Positions 16,871-37,677 of a stretch of DNA of 64,000 nt are shown here, piece after piece. The notes beneath the pieces are model-generated. The model was not told the origin of the DNA. It made no database searches and worked only from the letters and a program-made list of their open reading frames with translations. Source of the DNA: Solirubrobacteraceae bacterium (GTDB lineage Bacteria; Actinomycetota; Thermoleophilia; Solirubrobacterales; Solirubrobacteraceae); the NCBI GenBank assembly GCA_035569835.1, contig DATMMF010000028.1, forward strand, positions 40,071 through 104,070, read 5' to 3'. The translations under genes and the position numbers were made by a program. Every line of letters starts with the position of its first letter. The first letter of the stretch is position 1.

Positions 16871-17383
16871 TCAGAACGGCTCGCCCAGCACTTCGACCGC
16901 GCCGGGCGGCCAGCCCGCGCCGTCGCGCAGTGGCGCCCACATCGCGCGCAGCGGCATCTCGACTCGCCCCGCGGGCTGCTCGGCGGTGACGGGCGCGTCG
17001 ATCAGCAGGAAGCCGAACCCCTCGTAGAGCGAGACGAGCGGCTCGCGGCAGAACAGCATCGCGCGCTCCGGCCCGAGGCGGCGGGCGACATCGAGGCTGC
17101 CCTCGATGACGAGCCTCGCGAGGCCGCGGCCGCGCACGTCGGGCCGCACGATCACGCTGCCGATCCCGACCACGGGAAAGGGCGGCTGCGCATCCACCCT
17201 CACCTCGGCGATCAGCGCGCCGGCCAGCGCGAGCAGCTCGCCGTGCTCGGCGGGGACGCCGACGTGGTGGTGCTTCTCGGCCCACTCGAGCCCTTCCGCC
17301 TCGCCACCCCAGGGGTGCGGGTCATCGCCCAGCAGCGCACGCCGCTGGTCCGAGTCGACGACTGGCAGCTCGATCGCCCGCAC
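16871..17383 (-). CDS. GNAT family acetyltransferase
   Basis: IGSVIVRPDVRGRGLA acetyl-CoA motif and LYEGFGF. Confidence 0.9.
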   Translation of the reverse strand: MRAIELPVVDSDQRRALLGDDPHPWGGEAEGLEWAEKHHHVGVPAEHGELLALAGALIAEVRVDAQPPFPVVGIGSVIVRPDVRGRGLARLVIEGSLDVARRLGPERAMLFCREPLVSLYEGFGFLLIDAPVTAEQPAGRVEMPLRAMWAPLRDGAGWPPGAVEVLGEPF

Positions 17384-17415: not shown

Positions 17416-21017
<3,602 letters not shown>

Positions 21018-21021
<4 letters not shown>

Positions 21022-21251
21022 CTCTGCACGTACCAGCGGCCGGTGTCGAGATCGTGGAAGACGACGATGTTCCGTCCCCGCACGCCGATCAGCTCCCAAT
21101 AGCGGCGGCGCAGCGGATGGGCGTCCCACCAGCGGTCCTCGACCAGCCAGGACTCGCGCATCGCCTCGACGGGTTCGCCGTCGACCTCGGCGGGAAGGCC
21201 CTCCCCCCAGCGCACACGGGCCGGTCTCGGGGCATTCAGCGCACGTGCCAC
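21018..21251 (-). CDS. Small WW-motif protein resembling DUF6504 and the ImuB C-terminal domain
   Basis: 77 aa, SWLVEDRWW..RRRYWEL; own SD GGAGG; ATGA overlap with dnaE2. Confidence 0.8.
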
Positions 21252-21281
21252 GAGGAGACGACCTCCATGCCGTCTTTACGA

Positions 21282-22529
21282 TCAGACATCCGCCACCGGC
21301 GCCAGTACCACGCGCCGCTCGGGAACGCGCGAGTCGGGGTCGACGAAGACGGCGCGCAGCGCCGCGTCACGTCCGGCGACGGCCCGCACCTGCGCGACCG
21401 CATCGCCAAGCCGCGAAAGGCGGGCTCCCCGGCCTTGGTCGAGCAGCGTGCCCTGCTCGCCCTGCGGCGGCCCGAAGCCCTCGACGGCCAGCCGCAGCGC
21501 CGCCGCGGGTGCGGGCAGCAGCTCCAGCCGCAGCGACAGGGCCAGCAGGATCCGCTCGGGGTCCGAGACGGGCTCGCGGAAGACGACGCGCTCGCTCCAG
21601 CTCCCTCCAGAGACGAGCTCGGCCGAGAGCGTCACCGCGCGCAGTGTCCGCCCGCGGCGCTCGGCCCGCGCGAGCACGCGGCTGACGAGCACCCCCAGCA
21701 CCCGCTTCAGCGCCGCTCCGCTGGCGGCATCGCCGACGCCCATCTCCTCCTCGAGCCGCTCGCGGGGAAGGCGCGGGCGCAGCGGGTGGTCCTCGCCGCA
21801 GGCCAGCCGGTGCGCCAGCCCACCGGCTTCGCCGAAGCGGTCGGTGAGCTCGCCGCGTCCGATCTTCGCCAGCTCGCCCAGCGTGAGCACGCCGAGACGC
21901 CTCAGCGGCGCCACGAGCGCGGCCGTGCCTTCGCGATGCTCCAGCAGATCGACCGGCCTGCCCGCCAGCCAGCGCCGCGCCTCGGCGGGCTCGATCGCGA
22001 GCGCGCGGCGCGAGGGCGCAGCCAGCGCGGCGGCGAGCGCACAGAAGCGCACCGGCGCGAGTCCGATCCGCGCGGGCCGGCCCAGCGCGCGCCGCGCGGC
22101 CGCGATCGTCCCCTCCCGCGTTCCGTGCAGACCGTTCAGCCCGCCCGTCTCGAAGAAGGCCAGCCCCCGGGCCGGCATGGAGCGCCGACCCGGTTCCAAA
22201 TCTCCCTCGGCCTGCTCCACGGCGGCACCGATCGACTCGAGCGCGCGCAGCGAGGACTCCCAGATCTCCTCGACACGAACGGGGTTACCAGGCAAGAGAA
22301 CCAGTTCGGGACAGCGCGCCAGCGCCTCCCCGAGCAGCATGCCCCGGCTGACGCCATGTGCTTCGGCGGCCCCGGATACCTCCCCCAGCCGCCCCGCTGC
22401 AGCCGCTCCGCCGGCGTTCACCGGCGGTGCGACCGCCAGCGCTCCCCCCGCCAGCGCCTGCCGCGCCAAGCTCGATCCCTCGGCGGCGGCCACGAGCTCG
22501 AAACGCGGCAGATACACGCAGGCGACCAT
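21282..22529 (-). CDS. imuB: ImuB-like catalytically inactive Y-family polymerase
   Basis: VACVYLPRF without catalytic Asp, GMLLGEALARCP, QGTLL clamp-motif-like sequence, PERR near the end; directly upstream of dnaE2. Confidence 0.88.
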   Translation of the reverse strand: MVACVYLPRFELVAAAEGSSLARQALAGGALAVAPPVNAGGAAAAGRLGEVSGAAEAHGVSRGMLLGEALARCPELVLLPGNPVRVEEIWESSLRALESIGAAVEQAEGDLEPGRRSMPARGLAFFETGGLNGLHGTREGTIAAARRALGRPARIGLAPVRFCALAAALAAPSRRALAIEPAEARRWLAGRPVDLLEHREGTAALVAPLRRLGVLTLGELAKIGRGELTDRFGEAGGLAHRLACGEDHPLRPRLPRERLEEEMGVGDAASGAALKRVLGVLVSRVLARAERRGRTLRAVTLSAELVSGGSWSERVVFREPVSDPERILLALSLRLELLPAPAAALRLAVEGFGPPQGEQGTLLDQGRGARLSRLGDAVAQVRAVAGRDAALRAVFVDPDSRVPERRVVLAPVADV

Positions 22530-22530
22530 A

Positions 22531-22544
22531 CGAACGTATGTTCG
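22531..22544. promoter_or_regulatory. LexA SOS box (Gram-positive type)
   Basis: CGAACGTATGTTCG matches CGAAC-N4-GTTCG, 1 bp upstream of the imuB ATG; TTGACT (22566-22561) lies 17 nt upstream of GAACAT. Confidence 0.9.
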
Positions 22545-22638
22545 CATCCGGCGGCGTCGTAGTCAAAACCGGGTGCTGTGCAGGGACTTCACGAGATGTC
22601 GCCCGCCTCTTGCACCGAGGCGCGCTAGCGTGACCGTC

Positions 22639-24524: not shown

Positions 24525-25421
24525 TCAGTCCATCGTCAGCGGACCCTCAGCCGAGCCGCTGAGGAACTGCCGCACGAACGCGTTGTCCGAGGAGAACATG
24601 CGCTCGGCATCGCCCGCTTCGACGATCCGCCCGCGCCACAGCACCGCGATGTACTCGCCGATCTGGCGCGCGGAGGCGATGTTGTGGGTGACGACGATGT
24701 AGGTGCCTTTGTAGATCTGGTGCATCTCCTGGATCAGTTCGCACAGCAGCGCGGTGCGTACCGGGTCCAGCCCCGAGTCGGGCTCGTCGAAGATCACGAC
24801 GTCGGGCTCCATCACGAGCGCGCGGGCGAAGCCGGCGCGCTTGCGCATCCCGCCGGAGAGCTGCGAGGGCGCGTCGTCCATCGCCTCACCGAGGCCCACG
24901 TCGCGCAGGCGCTGGACGACGCGCTCGGCGATCGCCCCCTCGGTCATGTCCGTGTGCTGCCGCAGCGGGAAGGCGACGTTGTCGTAGACCGACATCGACC
25001 CGAACAGCGCACCGTCCTGGAACAGAACGCCGATCTTCCTGCGCAGCTCGAGCAGGTCGTGCATGTTCAGCCGCCCGACTGACTGTCCTTTGACGACGAT
25101 CTCGCCCGCGTCGGGGAACATCAGCCCGATGATGTGCTTGATCAGCACGCTCTTCCCGGTTCCCGACGGTCCCAGCACGACGGTGATCGTGTCCTCCGGG
25201 AAGGCGACGTTCAGGCCGTTGAGCACCGGCACCCCGCCGAGCCGCTTGACCACGTCCTTGCAGCGGATCGACCAGTCGCCCTCCTTGCCGGCGAGTTCCA
25301 AGCCGGTCGAGTGGAACTCGAAGCTGTCGTCGCCAGCACCGGGTTCGCTGGTCGCTTGCCCTCCGGGCAGATCGCCCTGGGCGTCGGGGTCGGCGTTGGG
25401 ATCGTAGGGCTCGGACATCAT
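24525..25421 (-). CDS. mkl: Mkl/MceG/MlaF-type ABC ATPase
   Basis: GPSGTGKS, LFQDGALF, NVAFPLRQHT, LSGGMRKRAGFARAL, DEPDSGLDP; overlaps the last mce gene. Confidence 0.9.
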   Translation of the reverse strand: MMSEPYDPNADPDAQGDLPGGQATSEPGAGDDSFEFHSTGLELAGKEGDWSIRCKDVVKRLGGVPVLNGLNVAFPEDTITVVLGPSGTGKSVLIKHIIGLMFPDAGEIVVKGQSVGRLNMHDLLELRRKIGVLFQDGALFGSMSVYDNVAFPLRQHTDMTEGAIAERVVQRLRDVGLGEAMDDAPSQLSGGMRKRAGFARALVMEPDVVIFDEPDSGLDPVRTALLCELIQEMHQIYKGTYIVVTHNIASARQIGEYIAVLWRGRIVEAGDAERMFSSDNAFVRQFLSGSAEGPLTMD

Positions 25422-27013
25422 TTTCCTTCGAAGACCACGTGGGGGAACTGGCTGGATTTGCCGTTGAAGCTGTTGGGCCCCTGCTGCCTGCACGGCGGGG
25501 CGGGCACCGCGTTCACGCCCGCGGGCTGTTTCTCGGCCTTTTCGAGTTCTTCCTTTTCCGCGGGTTCTTTCGATTCGAAGCCCGTGAAGGTTTCGGGACG
25601 GTTCGCAACGTGGAAGTTGATCAGCCTCAGGATAAGAGGTGCCGGGATCGTTTCCGACGGCGGCCCGTCGGCGGACGGCGTCGCGTTCCCGCACGAGCTC
25701 GTGCTGAACATCGGCAGGCCGCCGCTGATCAGGTTGTAGGTCCCCGGCAGCGGGTACGCGTTGGAGCGGTTGTTGCCGATCTTGCTCGGGTAGAGCGCGA
25801 GGCTTTCGGTGTTGAGGGTCGCGAGCGTCATCAGCATGTGCTGCTTGGGCCCTTCCGGTTCGCCTTCCGCGTTGACGGGAAGGTTCCCGTTGCCCTGCTG
25901 GAAGTTGGAGGCGGCGGTGAGGTTCGCGAAGAACGCCTGGACCTCTTTCACGTAGGTGCCGGTGTACTGCAGGAACGGGTCGAGGTTGTGCAGCACCGGG
26001 CGGAAGTTTTCGAGCACCGGTTCGGTCAGCTTCAGCGACTTGCCGAGGTCGGGCAGGCCCTTCTTCGCGGCCTTCGTGAGCGGGCCGAGCGAGGTCAGGA
26101 ACTGATCGAGCTGGGGCGCGAAGGGCTTCGCCGCGGACAGCAGCGAGGACAGGCTGCGCTCGGCGGGCCTGAATTCTTCGAGGAACGGGTTCGCCACGAC
26201 CGCGAATTTGTCGATTTCTTTCAGCGCCGTACGGGAGTTGCGCTCGAAGGGCGGCAGCAGGCGCCACGTCTGTGCCCACGCTTCGCTCGCCGAGGCGGCG
26301 GCTTTGAAGGTGTGTTCGCCGTTGACGATCACGCCTTCGAGCTGGTGGTCGCGGCTGGCCAGGGCATTGAACACGACGCCAGTGTTCTTGACGAGATCCC
26401 GCAGCGCCCCCTCCTGCGTGACGAGGATGTTCAGCAGCTGGTTGGCGTGTTCGGTGAACGGTTCCAGGCGCGCGAAGGAGGCGTTGACCTGTTCGCCGCG
26501 CCCGTTGAGGCCTTCGGCCACCGATTGCTGCCAGATCTTGAACGCCGCGCGGGTCTTGGGATCGAAGGTCGCAAGGATGTCGTCGAGCGTGACAGACGGT
26601 TCGACGTTGCCGGGCGGAAGCCGCCCGCCGTCGGCGACGTAGGGGCCGACGTGCGCCTGCGGGATCAGCTGGATGTAGGTCTCGCCGAGCAGCGTCTTCT
26701 GGCGGATGATCGCGTGGACGTTGCGCCGGATCGGGGCGTACTTCTGGTTGATTTCAACCGTCGCGATCGTCTTGCCTTCGGAGCCCTTCTTGACGGAGAT
26801 CACGTGGCCGACGTCGACGCCGCTGATGCGCACGTCGGACTGTTCGGAGAGCGCCAGCACGCGCGGGAACGCGATCGCCATGCGGTAGCCCTTCGGTTTC
26901 AGGGGCAGCGGCCCGCCGAAGGACTCCCACAGGAACAGCAGCAGCCCGAAGCAGCTCAGCGCGAACAGGATGATCACGAGGATGTTGCCGAGCGTGGGCG
27001 CGCGCTTCTGCAT
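25418..27013 (-). CDS. Mce/MlaD family protein (6th in operon)
   Basis: N-terminal TM, SDVRISGVDVGHV MlaD domain, long helical region. Confidence 0.92.
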   Translation of the reverse strand: MQKRAPTLGNILVIILFALSCFGLLLFLWESFGGPLPLKPKGYRMAIAFPRVLALSEQSDVRISGVDVGHVISVKKGSEGKTIATVEINQKYAPIRRNVHAIIRQKTLLGETYIQLIPQAHVGPYVADGGRLPPGNVEPSVTLDDILATFDPKTRAAFKIWQQSVAEGLNGRGEQVNASFARLEPFTEHANQLLNILVTQEGALRDLVKNTGVVFNALASRDHQLEGVIVNGEHTFKAAASASEAWAQTWRLLPPFERNSRTALKEIDKFAVVANPFLEEFRPAERSLSSLLSAAKPFAPQLDQFLTSLGPLTKAAKKGLPDLGKSLKLTEPVLENFRPVLHNLDPFLQYTGTYVKEVQAFFANLTAASNFQQGNGNLPVNAEGEPEGPKQHMLMTLATLNTESLALYPSKIGNNRSNAYPLPGTYNLISGGLPMFSTSSCGNATPSADGPPSETIPAPLILRLINFHVANRPETFTGFESKEPAEKEELEKAEKQPAGVNAVPAPPCRQQGPNSFNGKSSQFPHVVFEGK

Positions 27014-28540
27014 CTAGCGCCTCCCCCCCTGTGCCGCCTTGGCGCGCTGGGTGGCCTTCGTGCCCCTCGCGGTGTGCCCGAACGGCGCGGAGCTGAGGTT
27101 GCCGAACGGCGCCGACGGGGTCTTCGCGCCGCTGCGCTCGCTCGCGCGGCCGCTCGAGGTCGTCGTGCTCGCGCCCTTCGGGATCACGCCGAGGCTTTCG
27201 CATTCCTGTTTGGTCGGCGGCTTCAGGAGCCCGACGAGCAGCGAGACGTTTTCGTTGACTTCGCTCGCCCCGACGAGGATCGGAAGGATGTGGCAGTTGA
27301 AGTAGATCAGGCTGCGCCCGACGGCTCCCCGCGAGTCCGCGGTGCTCACAACGCTGTTGAGGTTGTGGTTTGCCCAGGCGAGGAAGAAGTCGAAGCCGGC
27401 CTTGCCCTTGCCCGGGTTGAAGGCGAGCTCGTTGAAGAATTCGTTGAGCACGGAGAAGGCGCTCGACAGCTTCGGGAACGCTTCCGAGAGCGCTGTGGTG
27501 CTCGGCGCGAGTTCGTTGACCGTCGGCAGGATTTCCCGCGCGAACGGCCTGATCTCGTTCTTGATCACCGGCGTCGTGTTGATCGCGAGCTTCTTGCTCG
27601 CCCGCTCGGCCGGCGCGAGCGATTTCGCGAACGGGTTGAGCTTGGTCAGCGCCGGCGTCACCTGTTCCGAGGCGGTGCCCAGCTTGCCGAGCGCTTTGCC
27701 GGTCTTGTGCAACGCGCCGGGCAGCAGTTTCAGCGTGCTCTGGAGGTTCTGGTCCTCCTTGGCGAACGTCTGGAAGACGGCGTTCGAGGCGTTGACCAGT
27801 TCGGCGATCTGCGTGTCCTTGGTGCCGAGCGCTTCGGTCAGCAGCCGGAAGTTGTGGATCGAGCGGCTGATGTTGGCCGAGCGCTTCGACAGTTCGCGCT
27901 GGATCTCGTCGCCGTAGCGCGCGGCCGGCTCGAAGCGCTTGAGCGTCGCGGCGAAGGCCGTGCCGTTGTTTTCGAAGCCCTGCCCCGCGCCGGCGAGCAG
28001 CTCCTGCAGGTACGCGCGCGTTTCGGCATCGAGACCGGCGAGGAATTCGTCGAAGTTGACGTTCGGCGCCGTCTGCGACAGCGGGATCACTTCGCCGCTC
28101 TTCAGCTTTCCGGCCGACGGCGTCCCCGGGTTGACCTCGATCGTGATGTCCTGCAGCTGGGTCTTCGGCCTCAGCAGCAGCGTCGCGTTCTTGTAGAAGC
28201 GCGCGTATTTCGGGGTCACTTTCATGGTGACCACCGCGACCCCCTCGTGCAGCGACACGCTCGCGACTTCGCCGACTTTCGCGCCGGCGATCGTCACGGC
28301 CTGGCCCTGCCCCGGCGTGACGGCCTGCGCGGTCTGGAACTCCGCCTTCAGGTCGTAGTATTCGTGCCCGAGCACGGGCACCCAGCTCGGCAGATGCAGG
28401 TTCTCGTGCGCGAGGATGTAGCCGCCGACGACGGTCGCGATCACGACCATCGTCACCACCGCGATGAACGCCGTGCGGTAGCGCTCGATCTGCTCGCGGA
28501 CCGACAGGCCGCCTTCGTGGCTGTGATCGGCCGGGTTCAC
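27014..28540 (-). CDS. Mce/MlaD family protein (5th)
   Basis: N-terminal TM, VTIAGAKVGEV MlaD domain. Confidence 0.92.
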   Translation of the reverse strand: MNPADHSHEGGLSVREQIERYRTAFIAVVTMVVIATVVGGYILAHENLHLPSWVPVLGHEYYDLKAEFQTAQAVTPGQGQAVTIAGAKVGEVASVSLHEGVAVVTMKVTPKYARFYKNATLLLRPKTQLQDITIEVNPGTPSAGKLKSGEVIPLSQTAPNVNFDEFLAGLDAETRAYLQELLAGAGQGFENNGTAFAATLKRFEPAARYGDEIQRELSKRSANISRSIHNFRLLTEALGTKDTQIAELVNASNAVFQTFAKEDQNLQSTLKLLPGALHKTGKALGKLGTASEQVTPALTKLNPFAKSLAPAERASKKLAINTTPVIKNEIRPFAREILPTVNELAPSTTALSEAFPKLSSAFSVLNEFFNELAFNPGKGKAGFDFFLAWANHNLNSVVSTADSRGAVGRSLIYFNCHILPILVGASEVNENVSLLVGLLKPPTKQECESLGVIPKGASTTTSSGRASERSGAKTPSAPFGNLSSAPFGHTARGTKATQRAKAAQGGRR

Positions 28541-30039
28541 GGTGTCCCGTCCGCGGGTCCGTTGGCCAGCGGGCCGTTGACTTCAGACGGTGCCTGCGTG
28601 TCGCAGGGCACGAGCGGCTTGTACGGCGGCTCGGAGGCAGGGAACGCGGGGCGCGTTCCGAGCGGCTGCAGAGGCGAGCGTGTGAGCAGCTTCAGCCCGG
28701 TGCCCGTTTTCACCCCGACCGCCGAGACCGGCCGGGAGACGAGCGTCTGGCCGCTGTTGCCGACCAGGAACTGGGTGAACGGGCCGTTGCCGTCGAAGCT
28801 CTGCCCGATCCCGGCGAGGCCGACCAGGCTGTACCAGAATTCCTTGTAGTTTTCGACGCCCGAGGTCGCGTTGCCGTCCTGGAGCTTCGCGTTGCCGGTC
28901 GGATAGATCACCTTCGTCAGGCACTTGTTGAAGGCTTCGGTCTGCTTGAACAGCGGCACCTGTTCGGCACTGAGTTTGGCCAGCGCGGGCGTCGCTTCTG
29001 AGAGCCCCTTGGCGACGCCGCCGAGCTCGCTCGGCTGCAGCGAGGCCTCGACCTGTTCGATCCACGGAATCTGCGCCTTCACCGTTTCGGGCGTCAGCTT
29101 CACGCCCGGGAGGATGTCGTTCGCGAACGCCCGCGTCGGCGCGAAGGAGCGGCCGAGCTCGCGCAGGCCGTGGGTGATCCCGTGCAGCGAGCTCGGCAGC
29201 TCGTGCACGGTCGCGCTGAGGCTCTGGTTCTGGACGGCGAAGGCTTCGAAGAACGTGTTGAAGTTGCCGATCAGTTCGCCGAGCTGCTGCTCGTGGACGT
29301 TCAGCGCCGCCGTCACACGCCCGATGCTCGCGATCAGCTTGGAGAAGTCGTGCGGTTCGGTGCCCGTGATCGCCTGGTTGATGATCGCGCCGCCGCGAAG
29401 GGCTTCGGGCGCGAGGTGGTACGTCTTGTTGATCGCTTCGGCGCCCGAGAGCCCGCGGACCTCGGGCAGCTGTTCGGCGTCTTCGGCGGCGTTCGGCCTC
29501 TTCGTCAGGCCTTCGCCGTAGTAGATCAGGAACTTCTGCAGGTTCGCGCGCGTGTCGGTGTTGAGCGCATCGAGCACCTGGTCGAGCTGCACCGGGTTGG
29601 CCGTCTGCGTGATCGGGATCGTGTAGCCGGAGGAGACGGTCTTCGCCGATGGGCTGCCGGGCTGCAGTTCGACGAACCAGTTGCCTTCGAGGAAGATCCG
29701 GGGCCGGATCTTGACCGTCGCGTCGGTGTGGATCGGCAGCCCCTTTTCTTCGATTTCCATCGTCACGAGCCCGGTGTTGCCTTCACGCTTGATCGACGCG
29801 ACCTTGCCCACGTCGACGCCGGCGATCCGCACCGGCGACTTGGAGTGGACGTTCATCGCCGAGTTGAATTGCGCCTTGAGCTGGAAGCCGTGTTTGAACG
29901 GGATGTGCTTGGTGAAGCCGAAGTAGATCGCGACCGCGATGATGATCAGGAAGACAACCGCGAATTTCACCGCGCTGCCGCGCCCGAGCTCCGAGACCGG
30001 GGTCTCGTCGCGGCGCCTCCAGAAGCGCAGGCGGCTCAT
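28537..30039 (-). CDS. Mce/MlaD family protein (4th)
   Basis: Start ATG 30039 (MSRLRFW), TM, SPVRIAGVDVGKV. Confidence 0.92.
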   Translation of the reverse strand: MSRLRFWRRRDETPVSELGRGSAVKFAVVFLIIIAVAIYFGFTKHIPFKHGFQLKAQFNSAMNVHSKSPVRIAGVDVGKVASIKREGNTGLVTMEIEEKGLPIHTDATVKIRPRIFLEGNWFVELQPGSPSAKTVSSGYTIPITQTANPVQLDQVLDALNTDTRANLQKFLIYYGEGLTKRPNAAEDAEQLPEVRGLSGAEAINKTYHLAPEALRGGAIINQAITGTEPHDFSKLIASIGRVTAALNVHEQQLGELIGNFNTFFEAFAVQNQSLSATVHELPSSLHGITHGLRELGRSFAPTRAFANDILPGVKLTPETVKAQIPWIEQVEASLQPSELGGVAKGLSEATPALAKLSAEQVPLFKQTEAFNKCLTKVIYPTGNAKLQDGNATSGVENYKEFWYSLVGLAGIGQSFDGNGPFTQFLVGNSGQTLVSRPVSAVGVKTGTGLKLLTRSPLQPLGTRPAFPASEPPYKPLVPCDTQAPSEVNGPLANGPADGTP

Positions 30040-31559
30040 TTCTTCTTCCCCTTCTTCTTGGCCGTCTTGATGCCGAGGGCTTCGAGCGTGGAGGCCGGGT
30101 ACGGTTCGCCATAGAGGTCGGTGCCGCGACCTGTGAATTCGGTGCCGGATTCGACGCTGTTCACGTTGCCGAGCACCGCCTGGCCGGGGATGAACCGCTG
30201 CTTGCCCGCTTCGCAGACCTGCTTCTGCCCGGGCGCGCTGACGTTGGGGTACGGGTTCACGTGCAGGTGGTTGTTGTCGATGATCGCGCCGCCCTTGCCG
30301 CCGGCTCGTTCGGTCGAGCCGCCGTTCGCCGGCGCCGAGGAGGGGAAGCCCTCGTTGTTCGGGCCGGACGGTGCGAGCATGACGCCGGCGCGCGCGACGG
30401 TGCCGACGCCGATGCTCTCGGACTCGAGGCTCGCGACGTTGCGGAAGGCGAGCGTCCAGTAGTTGCACTTCGCCTGGGAGGGGGCGACGCCTTCGAGCAC
30501 GGGGTTGCCGATTTCGACGGTGTGGGTGAAGTCTTCGAAGGCAAGGTTGATCACCGGGTTGTTGCCGAACTTGGCGAGCGCTTCGGCGGATTCAGCGAGC
30601 GCGCTGTTGAGCTGGGTCGCCGCGGCGAGGTTCGTCTTGCCTTCCGCAAAGCCGTGGGCCAGCGGCGGCGCGACGGTGACGAGATCGGCCGCGGAGGGGC
30701 GCAGCAGGCGCATGAACTCAGTCGCGTTGTTGATCAGCGGCGCCTCGGCCGGCAGTGAGTGAATCGACTGTTCGAGCGAGGCGGGGCCTTCGGCGGTCGC
30801 TTCTTCGAGCTGCTTGCTGACGCCCGCCCAAGCGGTGAAGAACTTGTCGAGGTAGACGTACTGCGCGCCCAGCTGGTTGGCTACCGGCGCGCTCTCTTCG
30901 GCGGAGCGCAGCAGCCCTTTGAAGAACCCGCGAAAATCGGTCTGGGGCGAGGCGAGGTTGGCGAGCACCGGGATCGCGTGGTTCACCACCGGCCGCAGTT
31001 CGGCGATCGTCTTGTTCAGCCCGAGGCCGCGTCCGGCGAGCCCGTCGCCGAAGTTGTTGGTGTTGACCTTGATCGCCTGGCGGGTGTGCTTGTCGAACAT
31101 GTTGAAGAGTTCCTCGATGTTCACCGGTTCGCGGGTCTGGCTCGTGGGGATCGTCGCCCCGGCGTTCAGTTTCTGCGCGGAGGTCCCCTTTTCGAGTTCG
31201 AGGTACTTGAGGCCGATCGCCGAGACCGATTGCACGATCGCTTTGGTGTCGGCGGGCAGCTTTTCGACGCTCTTTTCGAGCTTCAGGTCGGCGATCGCCG
31301 TGACTTTGCCGGTGCGTGGGTTCTGCCTGGGCGACATCGAGCTCACGACGCCGACGCGCGTGCCGGCGATGCGGACCTGGTTGGAGACCTGCAGGCCGGA
31401 CGCCTCCGGGAGAGCGACCTTGATGTTGTAGGTCGGCACGAACGGCAGCCCGTTGTTCGCGTTGTAGGAGAGGAACACGGCCACGACGACGATCAGCGTC
31501 GTGACCGCCCCGATCAGCAGCGGGCTGGCGGCGAGCGAGTTGCGGCGGCGGCGGTCCAT
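30036..31559 (-). CDS. Mce/MlaD family protein (3rd)
   Basis: TM, NQVRIAGTRVGVV. Confidence 0.92.
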   Translation of the reverse strand: MDRRRRNSLAASPLLIGAVTTLIVVVAVFLSYNANNGLPFVPTYNIKVALPEASGLQVSNQVRIAGTRVGVVSSMSPRQNPRTGKVTAIADLKLEKSVEKLPADTKAIVQSVSAIGLKYLELEKGTSAQKLNAGATIPTSQTREPVNIEELFNMFDKHTRQAIKVNTNNFGDGLAGRGLGLNKTIAELRPVVNHAIPVLANLASPQTDFRGFFKGLLRSAEESAPVANQLGAQYVYLDKFFTAWAGVSKQLEEATAEGPASLEQSIHSLPAEAPLINNATEFMRLLRPSAADLVTVAPPLAHGFAEGKTNLAAATQLNSALAESAEALAKFGNNPVINLAFEDFTHTVEIGNPVLEGVAPSQAKCNYWTLAFRNVASLESESIGVGTVARAGVMLAPSGPNNEGFPSSAPANGGSTERAGGKGGAIIDNNHLHVNPYPNVSAPGQKQVCEAGKQRFIPGQAVLGNVNSVESGTEFTGRGTDLYGEPYPASTLEALGIKTAKKKGKKK

Positions 31560-32977
31560 CAGGGATGTTGGGCGGGGTCGCAGGTGAGCAGTTCTCCGTC
31601 GACGAACGGCGAGGAGCCGTCTGCGGCGGGCTGGGTCGCCGCGCCCGGGCAGCGCCGCAGCTGACCCGATTTCAACGGGGCCAGACCCTGGGTCGGGGAG
31701 GTGGGTTTGAGGGTGTCTTTTTCACCCAGGGAGAAGCTCGGGAAGACGGGGCTGACGCGCGCGTAGTTGCCGTCGGCGTCGTAGTAGGCGCCCGACTGGC
31801 CGAACGTGCGCAGCGTGCCGACGAGGTCCGGGGAGTACGGCCCGAAGAACGCGGTGATCGGCGCCGATTCCTTCTCGCCCTGGACGACTGCGGGCGACGC
31901 GGTCGTGAGCTGCTTGTAGAGCACCGGCAGGATCAGGGCGATGTCGGTGAGGTCGTTGTTCGGGCCCGGCCGGCTGAACGCGTTGTTGAAGTTCTTGATC
32001 GCCGGCGTGCCGGTAGTGACCAGCGAGTGCAGGTGGTTGAACAGCGTGATCAACGGCTGCGTCGTCGGTTTGGACGCCTCGACGAGCCGTTCGAGCGCCT
32101 GGAACGTGGCCGGCAGCTCGGCGAACGTCTTGTTGCCTTCGTGCAGCGTGCCCGGCAGCGCTTTCAGGCCCGCCGCGAAGTTCGCCTGCTGGTCGCCAAT
32201 TGCCGTGAACGTCGTGTTGGCGTTTTCGATCAGGCTCGAGAGCGCCGGCGCGCGGGCGCCGATCGTCGTCACGGCCTTGGCCGTTTCGATCAGGAACTTG
32301 GTGAACACCGGCTGGTCGCGCACCAGCTCTTCGAAGAAGTGGTCGGAGGCCGCCAGGAACGGACCGAAGTATTCGGTGGATTCGCCGAACTGCTTCCCGG
32401 CGCCGACGTACAGCGCGGCGTTGCCCTGGATGAACTCCGCGAGGCCCTGGCGCGTCTTCGGGTTCAGCGTGTTGAAGAGCTGGTCGAGGTCGGTGACTTC
32501 TTTGGTCGCGCTCGCCGGCAGCGTCGCACCGTCGTGCAGCGCCGCCGCGTTGTTCGGGCCGGGCGAGAGCTGGATGTAGCGGTTCGCGACGCTCGAGAGC
32601 GAGGGCGTTCGCACCTGCGCCGTCGTGCCCGCGTGCAGAGGCGTCAGCGAGCTGTCGACGTGGATCGTGACGTTCGCCTTGTCATTTGGGGTCAGCGAGA
32701 TGTCGGTCACGCTTCCGACCCGTACGCCGCCGACCTGGACTTCGTTGCCGCGGACGAGCTGCCCCGCTTCGGGGAAGATCAGGTGATAGGTGGCGCCCCC
32801 GCCGGTGCCGAACACGAGGTAGGCGATGATCAGCACGACGAGCGCCAGCGCGCCGATCGCGATGATGCGCGCGTTGGAGACACGCGAGCGCGTCACCGGG
32901 CCGCGCGCGGGCTGGCCGGCGGCAGGCGGCGGGGCGCCCGGAGGAGTCGGCTGGCTCGGGGGGCTAGTCGTGGCCAC
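31559..32977 (-). CDS. Mce/MlaD family protein (2nd)
   Basis: TM, GNEVQVGGVRVGSV. Confidence 0.92.
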   Translation of the reverse strand: MATTSPPSQPTPPGAPPPAAGQPARGPVTRSRVSNARIIAIGALALVVLIIAYLVFGTGGGATYHLIFPEAGQLVRGNEVQVGGVRVGSVTDISLTPNDKANVTIHVDSSLTPLHAGTTAQVRTPSLSSVANRYIQLSPGPNNAAALHDGATLPASATKEVTDLDQLFNTLNPKTRQGLAEFIQGNAALYVGAGKQFGESTEYFGPFLAASDHFFEELVRDQPVFTKFLIETAKAVTTIGARAPALSSLIENANTTFTAIGDQQANFAAGLKALPGTLHEGNKTFAELPATFQALERLVEASKPTTQPLITLFNHLHSLVTTGTPAIKNFNNAFSRPGPNNDLTDIALILPVLYKQLTTASPAVVQGEKESAPITAFFGPYSPDLVGTLRTFGQSGAYYDADGNYARVSPVFPSFSLGEKDTLKPTSPTQGLAPLKSGQLRRCPGAATQPAADGSSPFVDGELLTCDPAQHP

Positions 32978-35219
32978 CGGCTTCCTTTCCGCTCGCCGTC
33001 TGAACCGGGATCGCCGCAGCGGAGGGCTTGCGTGAGACCGAGGGGTCGGGGATCTCGCCCAGCCTCGCGATCAGGCGGCTCCATTGCTGCGGCGAGAGCG
33101 CCGAGGAGAACAGCCCGGCGATGCGCGCAAGGTCGGACTTCGGCGAGGCGAACACGACGCGGATCGCGTCGGCGGCTCCCGCGCTGGTTGCGGTCGCCGA
33201 GGCGTTCGGGTAGCGCATCTGGCTGACGATGCGGCGCGGGCGTGCGAGCCCTTGGAGCATCAGCAGCTTGCGCACGAGCGTGTCGGCGGCGCTCCCCTGC
33301 GTCTGGTGGCCGGCGACCGGCACGCCCCCGACGGCCGTGATCGACATCGCGTCGATCGCCGAGGCGGCTGCGGTGTTCGCGGCCTGCGCGGCGGGCGTCG
33401 CAGGCGCGCAGGGCATACCGGCGACGGTCGGGCGCAGGCCAGAGACCGACAGGTACTCGAGCGCCGCTAGCACGCGCACGTCCACGCGCCCAGAGGAGAC
33501 GTCCTCGCGGCCGCAGGAGCTCAGGCGGATGCCGCCGTCGCGGAGCACCTGCGGCTCGAGCTGCCGCTTGGTCTCCAGCAGCACCTGGCCCACGGTCGGC
33601 GAGGTGGCCAGGAACGGGTTCTCGCCCTTGGCGTGGAAGACCGAGCTGTTCTCGAGCGCCACCCAGCCGTCGAGCACGGGCTTCGGGTCGATCAGCGGAG
33701 CGCCCGGCCCCGCCGGGCGGATCTGGAAGACGATGTGCGGTTCTTCGCCGCCGGCGGCGCCGACGTGACCGAGCACCGTGCCCGCGATCACCTGCACGCC
33801 TTGGCGCAGTTCGTGGAGGTAGACCTCGTTGGCGCCTTCGCGGAACGCCTGTACGTGAGGCGCCACGGTCTGTGGCGCGTCCTGCTGCGCCGGCCGCGAC
33901 GTGGTGCTGTGCGCCGGGCGCGAGCTTTCCGGCGCCGCTTCCAGCCCCGCGGCCGCACCGAGCGCGAGGCCCGAGACGGCGGCGCCCTCCGAGACCGGCG
34001 AGCGCGGCTGCACGCCGGCCGTCGCGGGGCCGGACGGCGCCGGTTCGCGCCGGGCGGCACCGAGCGCGGGGTCGAGTTGGGAGTCGACGTGCGGCTCGAT
34101 CACCGGGTAGACGCGCTGGATGTCGCCGAGCCGCGCGTAGGTGTATTCGTTGCCGTAGGCGTCCCGCAGCGTCACGAAGCGCCCGAGCGTCGGCGAGTCG
34201 CCCGTCTGCACGACTTCACCGTCCTGGGAGGCGATCACAGGGGAGCCCGCGGCGGCGTAGATCGCCGTGCCGGGGATCGTCCGCGTGGCGCCCTTCGGCG
34301 TGCGCACCGTCGGGAACCCGTCGGCGAAGTGGGCGGCGGCGTAGACGGGGAAGCGCGCCTCGGTCAGCCCCGTGATCGCGCCCAGCAGTTCCGAGGGCGT
34401 GCCGGCGAGCAGCTGCGCACGCAGCATCACCGAGCTGACATACGCCTGCGAGTGGTTGTAGGCGAAGATCGCCGCGCGGATGTTGTTGTCCCCGCCCGCG
34501 GCGTGCAGGTACCTCGCCGCGGCGAAGATCGCGTCGGCCGGGTTGTACGGGTCCATGTAGCCGTCGCCGTTCGCGTCCACGCCGTAGGTCGCCCACGAGG
34601 ACGGCAGGAACTGCATCCAGCCCTCGGCCCCGGCGCTGGATACCGACAGGTCGCGGCCGTAGTCGGTCTCGACCTCGTTGATCGCGGCCAGCACCTGCCA
34701 GGGGATGCCGTACGCGGCGCCCGCCGCCTGGAAGATCGGGAGCAGGAACGGCGGGATCTCGAAGTCTTCGATGAAGAAGCTCGGCACGCCGAACGCCGCG
34801 CCGCGCAGCGCCGGCGGCAGCTGGGGCGTGAGCGAGGAGGGCGCCGCCGCCTTGTGCCCTCCGTGCGGCGTCGCGTTCGTGCTCTGAGTTTGCGATTCCC
34901 CGGCGCCGGCGGAGGGGCTCGCGGCGTGGCGCGGCTTCGAGGAGCCGCCGCTCGCGCTCTGCGGCTGCTGGGTCTGCACGCTCGGCGCTTCTTCGGTCGT
35001 CGTCGTCGTCGTCGTCGGCGCCGGCGGTTCGGCGGCCGGCGCCGGCGAGGAGGTCGAGGTCGTTTCGGGCTGCGGTTCGGCGACGGTGCTGGTGACCGAG
35101 GGCGGCGGCGCGATCGAGGTCGTTTCGGCTTCGGCGGCCGGGGCCGTCGCGGGCAGCGCCAGCACGATCGCCGCCGTCGCGCCGGCAGTGATCAGCAGGT
35201 GGACGCGAGCGGGACTCAT
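32964..35219 (-). CDS. Secreted lytic transglycosylase with P/T/S linker, degenerate split M23 domain and C-terminal domain
   Basis: VLAAINEVETDYG..SSAGAEGWMQF..DPYNPADAIFAAARYL; M23-like AGSPVIASQDGEV, YARL and PHIVFQIR. Confidence 0.88.
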   Translation of the reverse strand: MSPARVHLLITAGATAAIVLALPATAPAAEAETTSIAPPPSVTSTVAEPQPETTSTSSPAPAAEPPAPTTTTTTTEEAPSVQTQQPQSASGGSSKPRHAASPSAGAGESQTQSTNATPHGGHKAAAPSSLTPQLPPALRGAAFGVPSFFIEDFEIPPFLLPIFQAAGAAYGIPWQVLAAINEVETDYGRDLSVSSAGAEGWMQFLPSSWATYGVDANGDGYMDPYNPADAIFAAARYLHAAGGDNNIRAAIFAYNHSQAYVSSVMLRAQLLAGTPSELLGAITGLTEARFPVYAAAHFADGFPTVRTPKGATRTIPGTAIYAAAGSPVIASQDGEVVQTGDSPTLGRFVTLRDAYGNEYTYARLGDIQRVYPVIEPHVDSQLDPALGAARREPAPSGPATAGVQPRSPVSEGAAVSGLALGAAAGLEAAPESSRPAHSTTSRPAQQDAPQTVAPHVQAFREGANEVYLHELRQGVQVIAGTVLGHVGAAGGEEPHIVFQIRPAGPGAPLIDPKPVLDGWVALENSSVFHAKGENPFLATSPTVGQVLLETKRQLEPQVLRDGGIRLSSCGREDVSSGRVDVRVLAALEYLSVSGLRPTVAGMPCAPATPAAQAANTAAASAIDAMSITAVGGVPVAGHQTQGSAADTLVRKLLMLQGLARPRRIVSQMRYPNASATATSAGAADAIRVVFASPKSDLARIAGLFSSALSPQQWSRLIARLGEIPDPSVSRKPSAAAIPVQTASGKEAGGHD
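34996..35016. repeat. (GTC)7 trinucleotide run encoding a poly-Thr linker
   Basis: Read directly from sequence; encodes T7 in the transglycosylase linker. Confidence 0.9.
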
Positions 35220-35220
35220 C

Positions 35221-36777
35221 TCAGTTCCCGAGCAGGTAGTTGAGCAGCATGCCGTCGGCTTCCGGGCTTTCGTCCGAGGGCGAGTAGTAGGTCGTCCCGG
35301 ACGTCGAGCCCCCGACCGGCTGCGAGCTCGGTGCGCCGCCGGCGGAGTTCGAGGCCGGCGCCGGCGAGCTGCCCGGCGTTTCGCCCGGCGCCGGCGTGCC
35401 CGGGTATTTCGCGTTCGCCTGCGCGGGCGTGGCGCCTTTCAGCACCGCGAGCGTGCGCTCCATCACGAGTCCCGCTGGTTCGTGCGAAACGCTCGCCGCG
35501 CTCGCCTTGGCGCTCGCCGCGACCGTGCCGAGCCGGCGGTTGCAGCTCGGTTCCGTTTTGATGAAGTATTTGACGCACTGGTTGCCGACGCCCTCGGTGC
35601 GCAGGAAGTGCCCGAGCTGGTCGTAACCGTTCGCGGCGCCCGCGCCGAGGAAGATGAAGTCCATGATCCGCTCGAGCCCGCCGGTGTCGCGCAGGCTCGT
35701 GAACAGCGAGGCGAAGTTTTCGCTGAACGGCTTCGCCGGCGTGCCGAGCGCCTTGAGCTGTGCGAGCAGTTTTTTGCTCTGCGTCAAGGCGGGCCCGGAG
35801 CGCTTCGCCGTTTCGCCCGTGCTGATGAAGAACTTTTCAGAGCTCGCGGAGAAGCCGGGCAGGTTGACGAATGCCTTCGAGATCGACGGGGCCGCCTTGT
35901 TGAGGCTCGTGAACGTCGGCAGCGTCTGGTCAGCGAACCGTTCGAGGCGTTCCATCGCCGGGCCGAGCTGGCGCAGGAACGGCGGGAACAGCTGCAGGTT
36001 GCGCGCGAGCGCGCCCCGCTGAGCGGCGCTGGCCTTGGCGACCGTGTTGCTCTGCGCGAGGAAGTCGGCGACCTGCTGGCGCACGTGGGCGAACGGCGCG
36101 AGCGCGCGGTCGGAGTCTTCCGCGAGCTTCGTCAGCACCTGGTTCTCGCTCGCGAGGATCGAGAGCACCTTGTCGAATTCGCGCAGCGCGGGGTTCGCGC
36201 GCCGGATCACTTCGTGGAGGTCGCTGCCCCGCCCCGCGAGGCCGGCGCCGAGTTCGTTGAGGATGATCGTCAGCCGCTGCCGTTCGGGGAGGCGGTTGAT
36301 GTCACCCAGGAGGTCGACGTCGACGGGGCTGCTCGTGTTCTGGACGGGCAGCAGGTACTGGCCGGAGCCTTCGTGGCCGCCGGGGATTTTGTGCAGCGGC
36401 GGCGGCAGCGCCGTGCCGGGCACGCGGGGCTGCGTCGGCAGGCAGTCGACGTACTTCTCGCCGATCAGCGCCTGCGGGCGGATTTCGCAGCTCGCGTCGG
36501 CGCGGAAGTCCTTGAAGCCGTTGTTGTCGATGCTCAGGACGACGGCGGCCTTCGCAGCCGGCGTCGGCGTGACCGAGGTGACCTTGCCGACCTTGACGCC
36601 GGCGATCTTGACCTGCTCCCCGGGGATGATGTTGCCGGCGTCGTCGAAGATCGCCCGCACTTCGTAGCTGCCGTTGGAGCCGCCGGCGGAGAGGGCGAGC
36701 ACCACGAGCACGGCCACGGCGCATGCCGAGGCGGCCCCCACGACCGCCCTCCTGCGACCCACGCTCCTGTCTCTCAC
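35221..36777 (-). CDS. Mce/MlaD family protein (1st in operon)
   Basis: TM, GEQVKIAGVKVGKV; start placed at GTG 36777 after GAAGGA. Confidence 0.92.
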   Translation of the reverse strand: MRDRSVGRRRAVVGAASACAVAVLVVLALSAGGSNGSYEVRAIFDDAGNIIPGEQVKIAGVKVGKVTSVTPTPAAKAAVVLSIDNNGFKDFRADASCEIRPQALIGEKYVDCLPTQPRVPGTALPPPLHKIPGGHEGSGQYLLPVQNTSSPVDVDLLGDINRLPERQRLTIILNELGAGLAGRGSDLHEVIRRANPALREFDKVLSILASENQVLTKLAEDSDRALAPFAHVRQQVADFLAQSNTVAKASAAQRGALARNLQLFPPFLRQLGPAMERLERFADQTLPTFTSLNKAAPSISKAFVNLPGFSASSEKFFISTGETAKRSGPALTQSKKLLAQLKALGTPAKPFSENFASLFTSLRDTGGLERIMDFIFLGAGAANGYDQLGHFLRTEGVGNQCVKYFIKTEPSCNRRLGTVAASAKASAASVSHEPAGLVMERTLAVLKGATPAQANAKYPGTPAPGETPGSSPAPASNSAGGAPSSQPVGGSTSGTTYYSPSDESPEADGMLLNYLLGN

Positions 36778-36796
36778 CCCGTTCGATCCTTCCCTC

Positions 36797-36842
36797 AAGA
36801 CAAAGCGAGCGACCCCACCCGTGCTGCGGCGAGGTCGCCCGC
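36797..36842 (-). terminator. Intrinsic terminator/attenuator-like hairpin just upstream of the first mce gene
   Basis: Minus strand GCGGGCGACC..GGTCGCTCGC (10 bp, one G-U) followed by TTTGTCTT. Confidence 0.55.
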
Positions 36843-36894: not shown

Positions 36895-37677
36895 CTATTT
36901 CTTGCGCGGGCAGGGCGCGTGGTATTCCGCGGTCACGGTCTGTTCTGAAAGACCGCCGAGAGGCGCGAACGTGAGTTCGGTCTTGACCGGCAGATATTTT
37001 TTCGGGCACGACGTCGGCAGCGTGCCGTAGTAGATGGTTTTGCCGCCTTTCTTGACCGCCGAACCGCTCTTGACCTTGATCTTGCTGACCGAGGCGTCCT
37101 GAGCGCCGGGGACCGTTTCGACGAGCGGCACTTCGGCTTCGAACTTCTTGCTGAACAGCCCGCTCGCGCCCGTGAAGCGACCCTTCGAGAGGATTTCCAG
37201 CAGCACCGGTTCGTGGCCGAACGTGAAGAACGTCAGCCCGCCGCCGGGCGCGTAGAAGCCCTGGATCGTGACTTTCTCAGGCACGATTTCTTTGCCGAAG
37301 GCGACGAAGCCTTCACCTTCGCCGACCGGACCTGCGGTCGATCCTTTCGGGCAGCCTTTCGGACCCTTGCCGGACGGTTCGAGCGTCGAGACCGGGCACG
37401 TGGGGAACCCGGTCGGGTGCAGCTTCGTGCCGGCCGGCAAGTAGAAGTTGACGTGGATCAGCGGGGGCGGGAAGCCACCGTATTCGGTCCCCGAGATCTC
37501 GTATTCGGCTTCGACGGCCGCGCCGGCACCGAAGATGTTCCCTGTGTGCGGGAAGCCGGGGATTGGCACAGCCTTCGCTTTGAATTTCACCGTCGGCACC
37601 GCCGAGGCCACGCCGGGGAGCGCGAGCGCCAGGACGGCGAGGCCGAGAACGGCAAGACAGCAGGATGCTTTGCGCAT
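36895..37677 (-). CDS. Secreted protein of unknown function (260 aa, one Cys-pair domain)
   Basis: Signal peptide ending ASA; SD AGAGGAG; YLPAG..C..CPKGS.G motif. Confidence 0.85.
   Translation of the reverse strand: MRKASCCLAVLGLAVLALALPGVASAVPTVKFKAKAVPIPGFPHTGNIFGAGAAVEAEYEISGTEYGGFPPPLIHVNFYLPAGTKLHPTGFPTCPVSTLEPSGKGPKGCPKGSTAGPVGEGEGFVAFGKEIVPEKVTIQGFYAPGGGLTFFTFGHEPVLLEILSKGRFTGASGLFSKKFEAEVPLVETVPGAQDASVSKIKVKSGSAVKKGGKTIYYGTLPTSCPKKYLPVKTELTFAPLGGLSEQTVTAEYHAPCPRKK

Follow-up and report, generated by a model that had tools for sequence, protein, structure and literature searches.

A probable split-ImuB mutasome operon with a standalone ImuB-C gene adjoining dnaE2 in Solirubrobacterales

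The locus considered here lies within a 64-kb window (the whole stretch of DNA that was analysed) and comprises three genes, which are read from the minus strand in the order of a 415-aa Y-family gene (21282-22529), a 77-aa open reading frame (ORF; 21018-21251), and dnaE2 (17416-21021). The Y-family ORF runs from the ATG at 22529 to the TGA at 21284-21282, its C-terminal end reading ...PERRVVLAPVADV / ...DPDSRVPERRVVLAPVADV. It is followed by a junction (21252..21284, minus strand) composed of TGA, TCG, TAA, GGAGG, and a 10-nt spacer, the two stops being in frame with the small ORF; the GGAGG occupies 21262-21266, 10 nt 5' of the GTG at 21251 with which the 77-aa ORF starts. In the window the Y-family ORF and the small ORF share one frame and stand 30 nt apart, while the stop codon of the small ORF (TGA, 21020-21018) shares the tetranucleotide ATGA with the start codon of dnaE2 (ATG, 21021-21019). 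The TGA-TCG-TAA, the GGAGG, the 77-aa ORF, and its overlap with the dnaE2 ATG had been described in an earlier sequence-only reading, and each of them agrees with the window base for base. The G+C content of the window is 71%, many spurious ORFs occur in it, and 77 codons by themselves are unremarkable; the small ORF is regarded as real because it is conserved, not because of its length.

The 415-aa product of the first gene, designated iPolY, carries the Pfam domains IMS and IMS_C and corresponds to "ImuB minus its C-terminal domain". It is the orthologue of Conexibacter woesei ADB52665, which was classed as "other_inactive" in the 2019 tables. In the alignment with active DinB the catalytic D-M-D is replaced with Y-L-P and S-L-D-E with G-L-A-F, so that the catalytic Asp, Asp, and Glu face Tyr, Pro, and Leu/Ala. 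With these carboxylates replaced, iPolY is catalytically dead. A candidate β-clamp-binding pentapeptide of the Q-x-x-L-[LF] type, Q359-G-T-L-L363 (21441..21455, minus strand), was selected by conservation and alignment: of 71 aligned sequences (the window protein and 70 orthologues) at least 95% retain Q359 and L362, and the pentapeptide lines up with QPALF, TAQLF, and ATTLF of relatives, making a role as clamp motif plausible.

Further towards the C-terminus, at approximately residues 367-394, a RecA-NT-like motif was recognized by alignment (RGARLSRLGDAVAQVRAVAGRDAALRAV; 21348..21431, minus strand). This segment aligns with the annotated RecA-NT-like motif of the C. woesei orthologue (ETARRARLREGVRQARAAAGPDAALRVL) and with M. 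tuberculosis ImuB, and at the sequence level it is conserved in the 70 iPolY orthologues. The protein ends with a conserved C-terminal tail (FVDPDSRVPERRVVLAPVADV; 21285..21347, minus strand), in which DPDSRVPERR is nearly invariant, and it is exactly after the "PER" of this tail that canonical ImuB and the fused relative P0220, described below, continue into the linker to ImuB-C. A 12-aa insertion is private to the window iPolY.

The second gene (21018..21251, minus strand; GTG start) encodes a protein of 77 aa, which was characterized by BLASTP, profiles, hhalign, and an AF2 model. Its sequence contains MARALNAPRPARVRWGEG...SWLVEDRWWDAHPLRRRYWEL...GRWYVQR, with the landmarks MARALNAPRPA...SWLVEDRWW...RRRYWEL. 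In total 369 database homologues were found, nearly all of 75-100 aa; the best 120 of them are 75-103 aa long and, where named, belong to Solirubrobacteraceae. In an alignment of 39 sequences the homologues share the beginning M-A-R-x-L-N, and 30 columns are invariant, E33, W35-L-V-E-D-R-W-W42, P46-L-R-R-R-Y-W-E-L54, and W73 among them; the C-terminal Trp (W73) and the Arg cluster, which are hallmarks of ImuB-C, are invariant, as are R40, W41-W42, and R48-R50. BLASTP aligned the 77-aa protein with Sphaerobacter thermophilus ACZ39476 at 42% identity (E 4e-17), and this protein was named as the ImuB-C of a "DnaE2X-iPolY-ImuBC-RecA system" in the 2026 survey (PMC12926913).

The relation to the C-terminus of canonical ImuB was approached by profiles. 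An exhaustive profile search collected 779 proteins, mostly of 70-130 aa, together with proteins of 484-525 aa that were matched at the extreme C-terminus only. Two of these fused matches, P0220 and P0233, carry the IMS domain. The body of P0220 is 46% identical to the window Y-family protein and passes in one continuous frame from ...RVPERRTALA through a short Ala-rich linker to ...RPLQRPHPVAV...WVVEDAWW.... The hhalign comparison of 151 family domains with 12 canonical ImuB C-termini, taken from the 2019 supplement and including M. tuberculosis, P. aeruginosa, P. putida, and others, gave a probability of 95.4% and an E-value of 1.7e-8 over 73 columns, and thus the profile-profile comparison proposed with the sequence-only reading turned out positive. 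Deeper profiles for both partners were needed for this link: a shallow family alignment compared with single alphaproteobacterial ImuB C-termini yielded a probability of 2-8%, which is too weak. The family HMM matched P. aeruginosa ImuB with an E-value of 2.7e-9; for M. tuberculosis ImuB the deeper single-profile HMM gave E 12, and this protein is linked by profile-profile comparison only.

The small protein had been called "DUF6504-like", a name that applies only indirectly. The Pfam family DUF6504 (PF20114) spans residues 431-504 of a canonical alphaproteobacterial ImuB, the gene of which adjoins imuA and dnaE2, and so it does cover the canonical ImuB C-terminus; however, the window protein has no match in Pfam or NCBIfam even at E<=10. 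Among 98 diverse members of the small-protein family only 5 matched PF20114 at E<=0.01, and weakly. The 77-aa protein falls short of the gathering threshold of PF20114, the current model of which misses this clade.

The AF2 model of the 77-aa protein is confident (pLDDT 87) and all-β with six strands. The earlier designation "WW domain" is a misnomer, since the Trp-Trp motif belongs to a six-strand β domain and not to the eukaryotic WW fold. Foldseek comparison of the model with the PDB gave nothing below E=1, in agreement with the published description of ImuB-C as a β-barrel with a novel fold (PMC12926913), and a PDB sequence search retrieved chance matches to the RuBisCO small subunit alone (E ~0.1). 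Features that define the ImuB-C superfamily are found here: similarity to recognised members, an all-β domain of about 80 residues, and a C-terminal Trp with basic residues. According to these sequence comparisons the 77-aa protein is assigned to the ImuB-C family.

The third gene encodes a 1201-aa homologue of the error-prone polymerase III α subunit with PHP, DNA_pol3_alpha, finger, and HHH_6 domains (17416..21021, minus strand). Against the NCBIfam model "error-prone DNA polymerase" it scored 908 bits, slightly under the cut-off of 939. In the supplementary table of the 2026 survey (PMC12926913) Conexibacter woesei and Baekduia soli are scored as DnaE2X=1, and by analogy with these two species the window DnaE2 would be placed in the DnaE2X group.

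Upstream of the operon an exact LexA-type SOS box was found (CGAACGTATGTTCG; 22531..22544), a palindrome CGAAC-N4-GTTCG that ends 1 nt before the ATG of iPolY at 22529. Such a box alone is weak evidence, because the window contains 8 matches with no more than one mismatch while 4.5 are expected. The exact box is present in all 73 related loci with a readable upstream region, standing 1-3 nt 5' of the orthologous ATG in 72 of them and further upstream in one. By this conservation the operon is assigned a LexA-type box at its start and a putative place in the SOS (LexA) regulon of the Gram-positive/actinobacterial type.

The spacing of the box also bears on the start codon. An alternative start of iPolY at the ATG at 22547 was rejected, as in 15 relatives with a 3-nt distance between box and ATG the corresponding upstream ATG is out of frame; the start is thus fixed at 22529, as originally assigned to the 415-aa protein. 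The hexamer TTGACT (22561..22566, minus strand), located 22 nt upstream of the box, is a possible -35 element, and TTGAC is found at an equal distance from the box in 28 of 75 related boxes. This arrangement suggests that the transcript may start at or very near the iPolY ATG, with LexA lying over the -10/+1 region. The scan for a consensus sigma-70 promoter found none, and the terminator scan gave a single terminator-like match, which lies within dnaE2 and does not exceed the level of chance.

Scanning a collection with one genome for each species revealed at least 596 loci with a gene for a close relative of the 77-aa protein, and the best 80 of them, all from Solirubrobacteraceae or Solirubrobacterales genomes, were examined. 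The order Y-family gene, small gene, dnaE2 was found at all 80 loci, a stop codon separates the first two genes at every one, and none is fused. The Y-family and small-gene frames are the same in approximately 11 loci and different in approximately 68. In 22 loci the Y-family stop and the small-gene start overlap (by 4 nt in 13 and by 1 nt in 9), while the remaining distances between them are mostly below 30 nt. Compared with the window over the 80 genomes, the small protein has a median identity of 71%, the Y-family protein of 66%, and DnaE2 of 70%. The survey of the split suggested with the sequence-only reading thus gave a uniform result for these genomes, and the separation of the Y-family gene from the ImuB-C gene is real. 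Together with the hhalign result it bears out the view of a natural ImuB split, in which the C-terminal domain is separately encoded and coupled to dnaE2.

This arrangement, "iPolY-ImuB-C-DnaE2 (+RecA, no ImuA)", is already known, including in Solirubrobacterales, from papers of 2013, 2019, and 2026. Aravind 2013 (PMC3765255) described the ImuB-C superfamily. Timinskas & Venclovas 2019 (PMC6511836) reported an operon of inactive PolY, standalone ImuB-C, and DnaE2 without ImuA, and listed C. woesei ADB52665 as "iPolY->ImuB-C->{1}->DnaE2" (supplementary file 11). In the 2026 survey (PMC12926913) the combination was called split ImuB, was assigned to the DnaE2X group, and was proposed to be the ancestor of ImuA-ImuB-DnaE2. 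Since C. woesei, a species of the same taxonomic order, was already present in the 2019 tables, the window represents another member of a described system. Several features by which split ImuB is recognized are found in it: the catalytic carboxylates are lost, the RecA-NT-like motif and the tail are present, and imuB-C and dnaE2 lie in one putative operon. With good confidence, therefore, the window can be considered to carry an SOS-regulated three-gene operon for the described "split ImuB" translesion mutasome, consisting of iPolY, standalone ImuB-C, and DnaE2.

The probable course of events can be outlined from the mycobacterial mutasome and the published AlphaFold models. DNA damage would lead to LexA cleavage and derepression of the operon, and translation would be coupled by stop and start codons that lie close together or overlap, so that the three proteins are made together. 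iPolY may then dock on the β clamp via its Q-x-x-L-L motif and bind RecA, in place of ImuA, via the RecA-NT-like motif, the role of RecA being proposed by analogy. The small β-barrel ImuB-C would connect the iPolY/RecA module with DnaE2 through the PHP domain of the polymerase, and DnaE2 presumably carries out the mutagenic bypass synthesis over lesions. The earlier description of this complex as a "three-part" mutasome is probably not correct, because the published model includes RecA as a fourth partner.

Several other explanations of the locus deserve consideration. The separation of the genes could be an artefact or a recent pseudogenisation of a fused ImuB, caused by a sequencing or assembly error or by a nonsense mutation, and indeed the two ORFs of the window are in the same frame, merely 30 nt apart, and fused versions occur in the relatives P0220 and P0233. 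However, the presence of the stop in all 80 genomes, the restriction of a common frame to about 11 loci with different frames in about 68, and the 22 overlapping stop and start codons leave this explanation a practically negligible probability: an error of sequencing, against which the sequence-only reading had argued, and a nonsense mutation of recent date are both excluded. Besides, the small ORF is provided with a GGAGG and a start codon of its own, and its homologues share a common beginning. It is also conceivable that the small ORF and dnaE2 yield one ImuB-C-DnaE2 polypeptide by programmed frameshifting or read-through, for which the ATGA overlap of stop and start and the database protein P0235, running from ImuB-C into a PHP domain, may be cited. 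This is highly improbable: past approximately residue 140 P0235 resembles an out-of-frame translation from a poor assembly, ATGA overlaps are a matter of ordinary translational coupling, and the predicted distance between the small-ORF stop and the dnaE2 start varies among relatives, the extremes being an overlap of 13 nt and a gap of about 177 nt, so that there is no conserved frameshift site.

A further question concerns the function of the separate domain, since in Aravind 2013 ImuB-C was viewed chiefly as a sensor of DNA lesions or structure that recruits polymerases, rather than as an adaptor binding DnaE2. ImuB-C genes are also located near genes of non-DnaE2 polymerases, Ku/ligase, or photolyase (PMC3765255), and the family is rich in Arg and has a mildly basic character (median pI 9.3; 8.4 for the window protein), which would suit such a sensor. 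On the other side, in mycobacteria the C-terminal region of ImuB has DnaE2 and ImuA' as binding partners, and a clamp motif recruits the complex, according to work cited in PMC6511836; published AlphaFold models place ImuB-C on DnaE2's PHP domain and the RecA-NT motif on ImuA or RecA (PMC12926913); and the small gene directly adjoins dnaE2 at 80 of 80 loci. A mainly sensory role in this operon is considered unlikely, and the DnaE2-binding role, which is proposed by analogy with mycobacteria and from structural models, appears to be the better description. The two roles are not mutually exclusive.

The preferred reading, a split-ImuB mutasome with ImuB-C as a likely DnaE2 adaptor, can be compared with related systems. 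The closest is the cluster of Conexibacter woesei DSM 14684 (ADB52665/ADB52664/ADB52662), which belongs to the same order, Solirubrobacterales, and includes an inactive Y-family protein, standalone ImuB-C, and DnaE2 without ImuA; its RecA-NT-like motif and "DPDSRVPERR" tail are near-identical to those of the window. C. woesei has one extra gene between ImuB-C and dnaE2, where the window has the ATGA overlap, and the 12-aa insertion of iPolY is unique to the window. The published split-ImuB systems, such as that of S. thermophilus (ACZ39476), have an equal component set and gene order; in several of these operons lexA is the first gene, whereas the window has the LexA box only, and no lexA gene was found adjoining the operon or in the 64-kb window. 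The participation of RecA is a model both for the window and for the published systems. A tblastn search, which is weak for divergent ImuA, detected homologues of RecA/ImuA neither in the 64-kb window nor in the 6-kb regions that flank the 80 loci.

The canonical ImuA(')-ImuB-DnaE2 mutasome of M. tuberculosis, P. aeruginosa, Caulobacter, and Myxococcus likewise possesses a dead Y-family protein with clamp and RecA-NT motifs, and a homologous C-terminal β domain (the 95.4% hhalign link); catalysis is left to DnaE2, and the system is under SOS control. In the canonical cassette, however, ImuB-C and the Y-family body form one protein, and the RecA-like ImuA is an obligatory third subunit, while in the window ImuB-C is a separate gene and imuA was not found nearby by tblastn. 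The Geobacter sulfurreducens lexA-imuB-C-polY operon (GSU0042-like) is similar in its standalone ImuB-C, damage inducibility, and Y-family polymerase, but there the polymerase is active and DnaE2 is absent. E. coli Pol V (UmuD'2C-RecA) resembles the system in a Y-family subunit with a RecA-binding motif, a small β-rich accessory subunit, and LexA control; it differs in that UmuC is an active polymerase and UmuD' is SH3-like, autoproteolytic, and unrelated to ImuB-C.

Damage-induced mutagenesis, which in mycobacteria extends to mutations for drug resistance, is driven by DnaE2 mutasomes. The consulted papers on the split type contain genomics and AlphaFold models, apparently with no experimental work. 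The window by itself is one further example, from an uncultured soil actinobacterium. What is added here is the uniformity of 80 Solirubrobacterales genomes with respect to the split, the order of the genes, and the LexA box, with at least 596 related loci, and the existence in the relatives P0220 and P0233 of what appear from their sequences to be stop-loss fusions of the Y-family and ImuB-C genes. It can tentatively be proposed, at somewhat less than even chances, that throughout the soil-dwelling Solirubrobacterales radiation the split iPolY/ImuB-C/DnaE2 operon is the standard SOS mutasome, and that sister lineages fused the genes by stop loss. If so, with at least 596 matching loci this type would greatly outnumber the "small" DnaE2X group known from complete genomes, and the split and fused forms would provide a natural series replaying the origin of canonical ImuB and a handle on which partner contacts require covalent linkage. 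Being naturally separate, ImuB-C is convenient, as a reagent of 9 kDa, for mapping the interface at which it meets the DnaE2 PHP domain and for testing whether RecA substitutes for ImuA.

As regards the surroundings of the operon, its neighbours are unrelated to it: upstream lie a peptidoglycan-binding protein and an mce/Mla cluster, and downstream a GNAT acetyltransferase gene, which is conserved in approximately the 14 closest loci only.

Single-polypeptide genes that join the body of the inactive Y-family protein (iPolY) and the ImuB-C domain are present at four loci of relatives (L084:4947-6524, L085:376-1953, L086:6001-7455, and L087:6001-7455), and no imuA was called near any of them. 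The fused proteins comprise 525 aa in P0220 and 484 aa each in P0233 and P0251. Loss of a stop codon would seem to account for the iPolY/ImuB-C junction of P0220, where a short linker rich in Ala connects the two parts; the P0251 gene is located 1.5 kb from its dnaE2 and has an extra dnaN copy nearby. On the Thermomicrobium roseum megaplasmid NC_011961 (L002:1706-7171) a gene annotated as "recombinase A" is followed by a gene for a 416-aa reduced ImuB-like protein and then by dnaE2. In this protein IMS_C was matched and the IMS domain was not, and its C-terminal LWW...RR...W end resembles ImuB-C; the arrangement represents a fused variant in compact form, accompanied by a RecA paralogue of its own.

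A fusion of another kind was suggested by the database gene call P0235 (635 aa), which was obtained in the ImuB-C profile search and in which the ImuB-C domain continues into the DnaE2 PHP domain. Because the sequence past about residue 140 resembles out-of-frame translation, P0235 most likely reflects an error of assembly or gene calling and not a genuine ImuB-C/DnaE2 fusion.

In the window the Y-family protein carries a 12-aa insertion, GDLEPGRRSMPA (residues 107–118; about 22176-22211), which is missing in about 70 orthologues and is located in the loop that stands in place of the lost catalytic S-L-D-E motif. A GNAT acetyltransferase gene (16871-17383, minus strand) follows dnaE2 at a distance of 32 nt; since it is kept in this position only in the roughly 14 closest genomes, it probably does not belong to the core of the operon.

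A second exact CGAAC-N4-GTTCG palindrome in the window (36966-36979; CGAACGTGAGTTCG) could be either a second LexA site or a chance match. It lies within the 3' end of an ORF (36895-37677, minus strand) whose product is secreted-looking and has no Pfam match, and a Mce/MlaD-like gene (35221-36798, minus strand) is found shortly downstream. A long mce/Mla-type lipid-transport cluster occupies 24525-36798 on the minus strand, where an ABC ATPase gene (24525-25430, minus strand) is followed by genes for several large MlaD-domain proteins.
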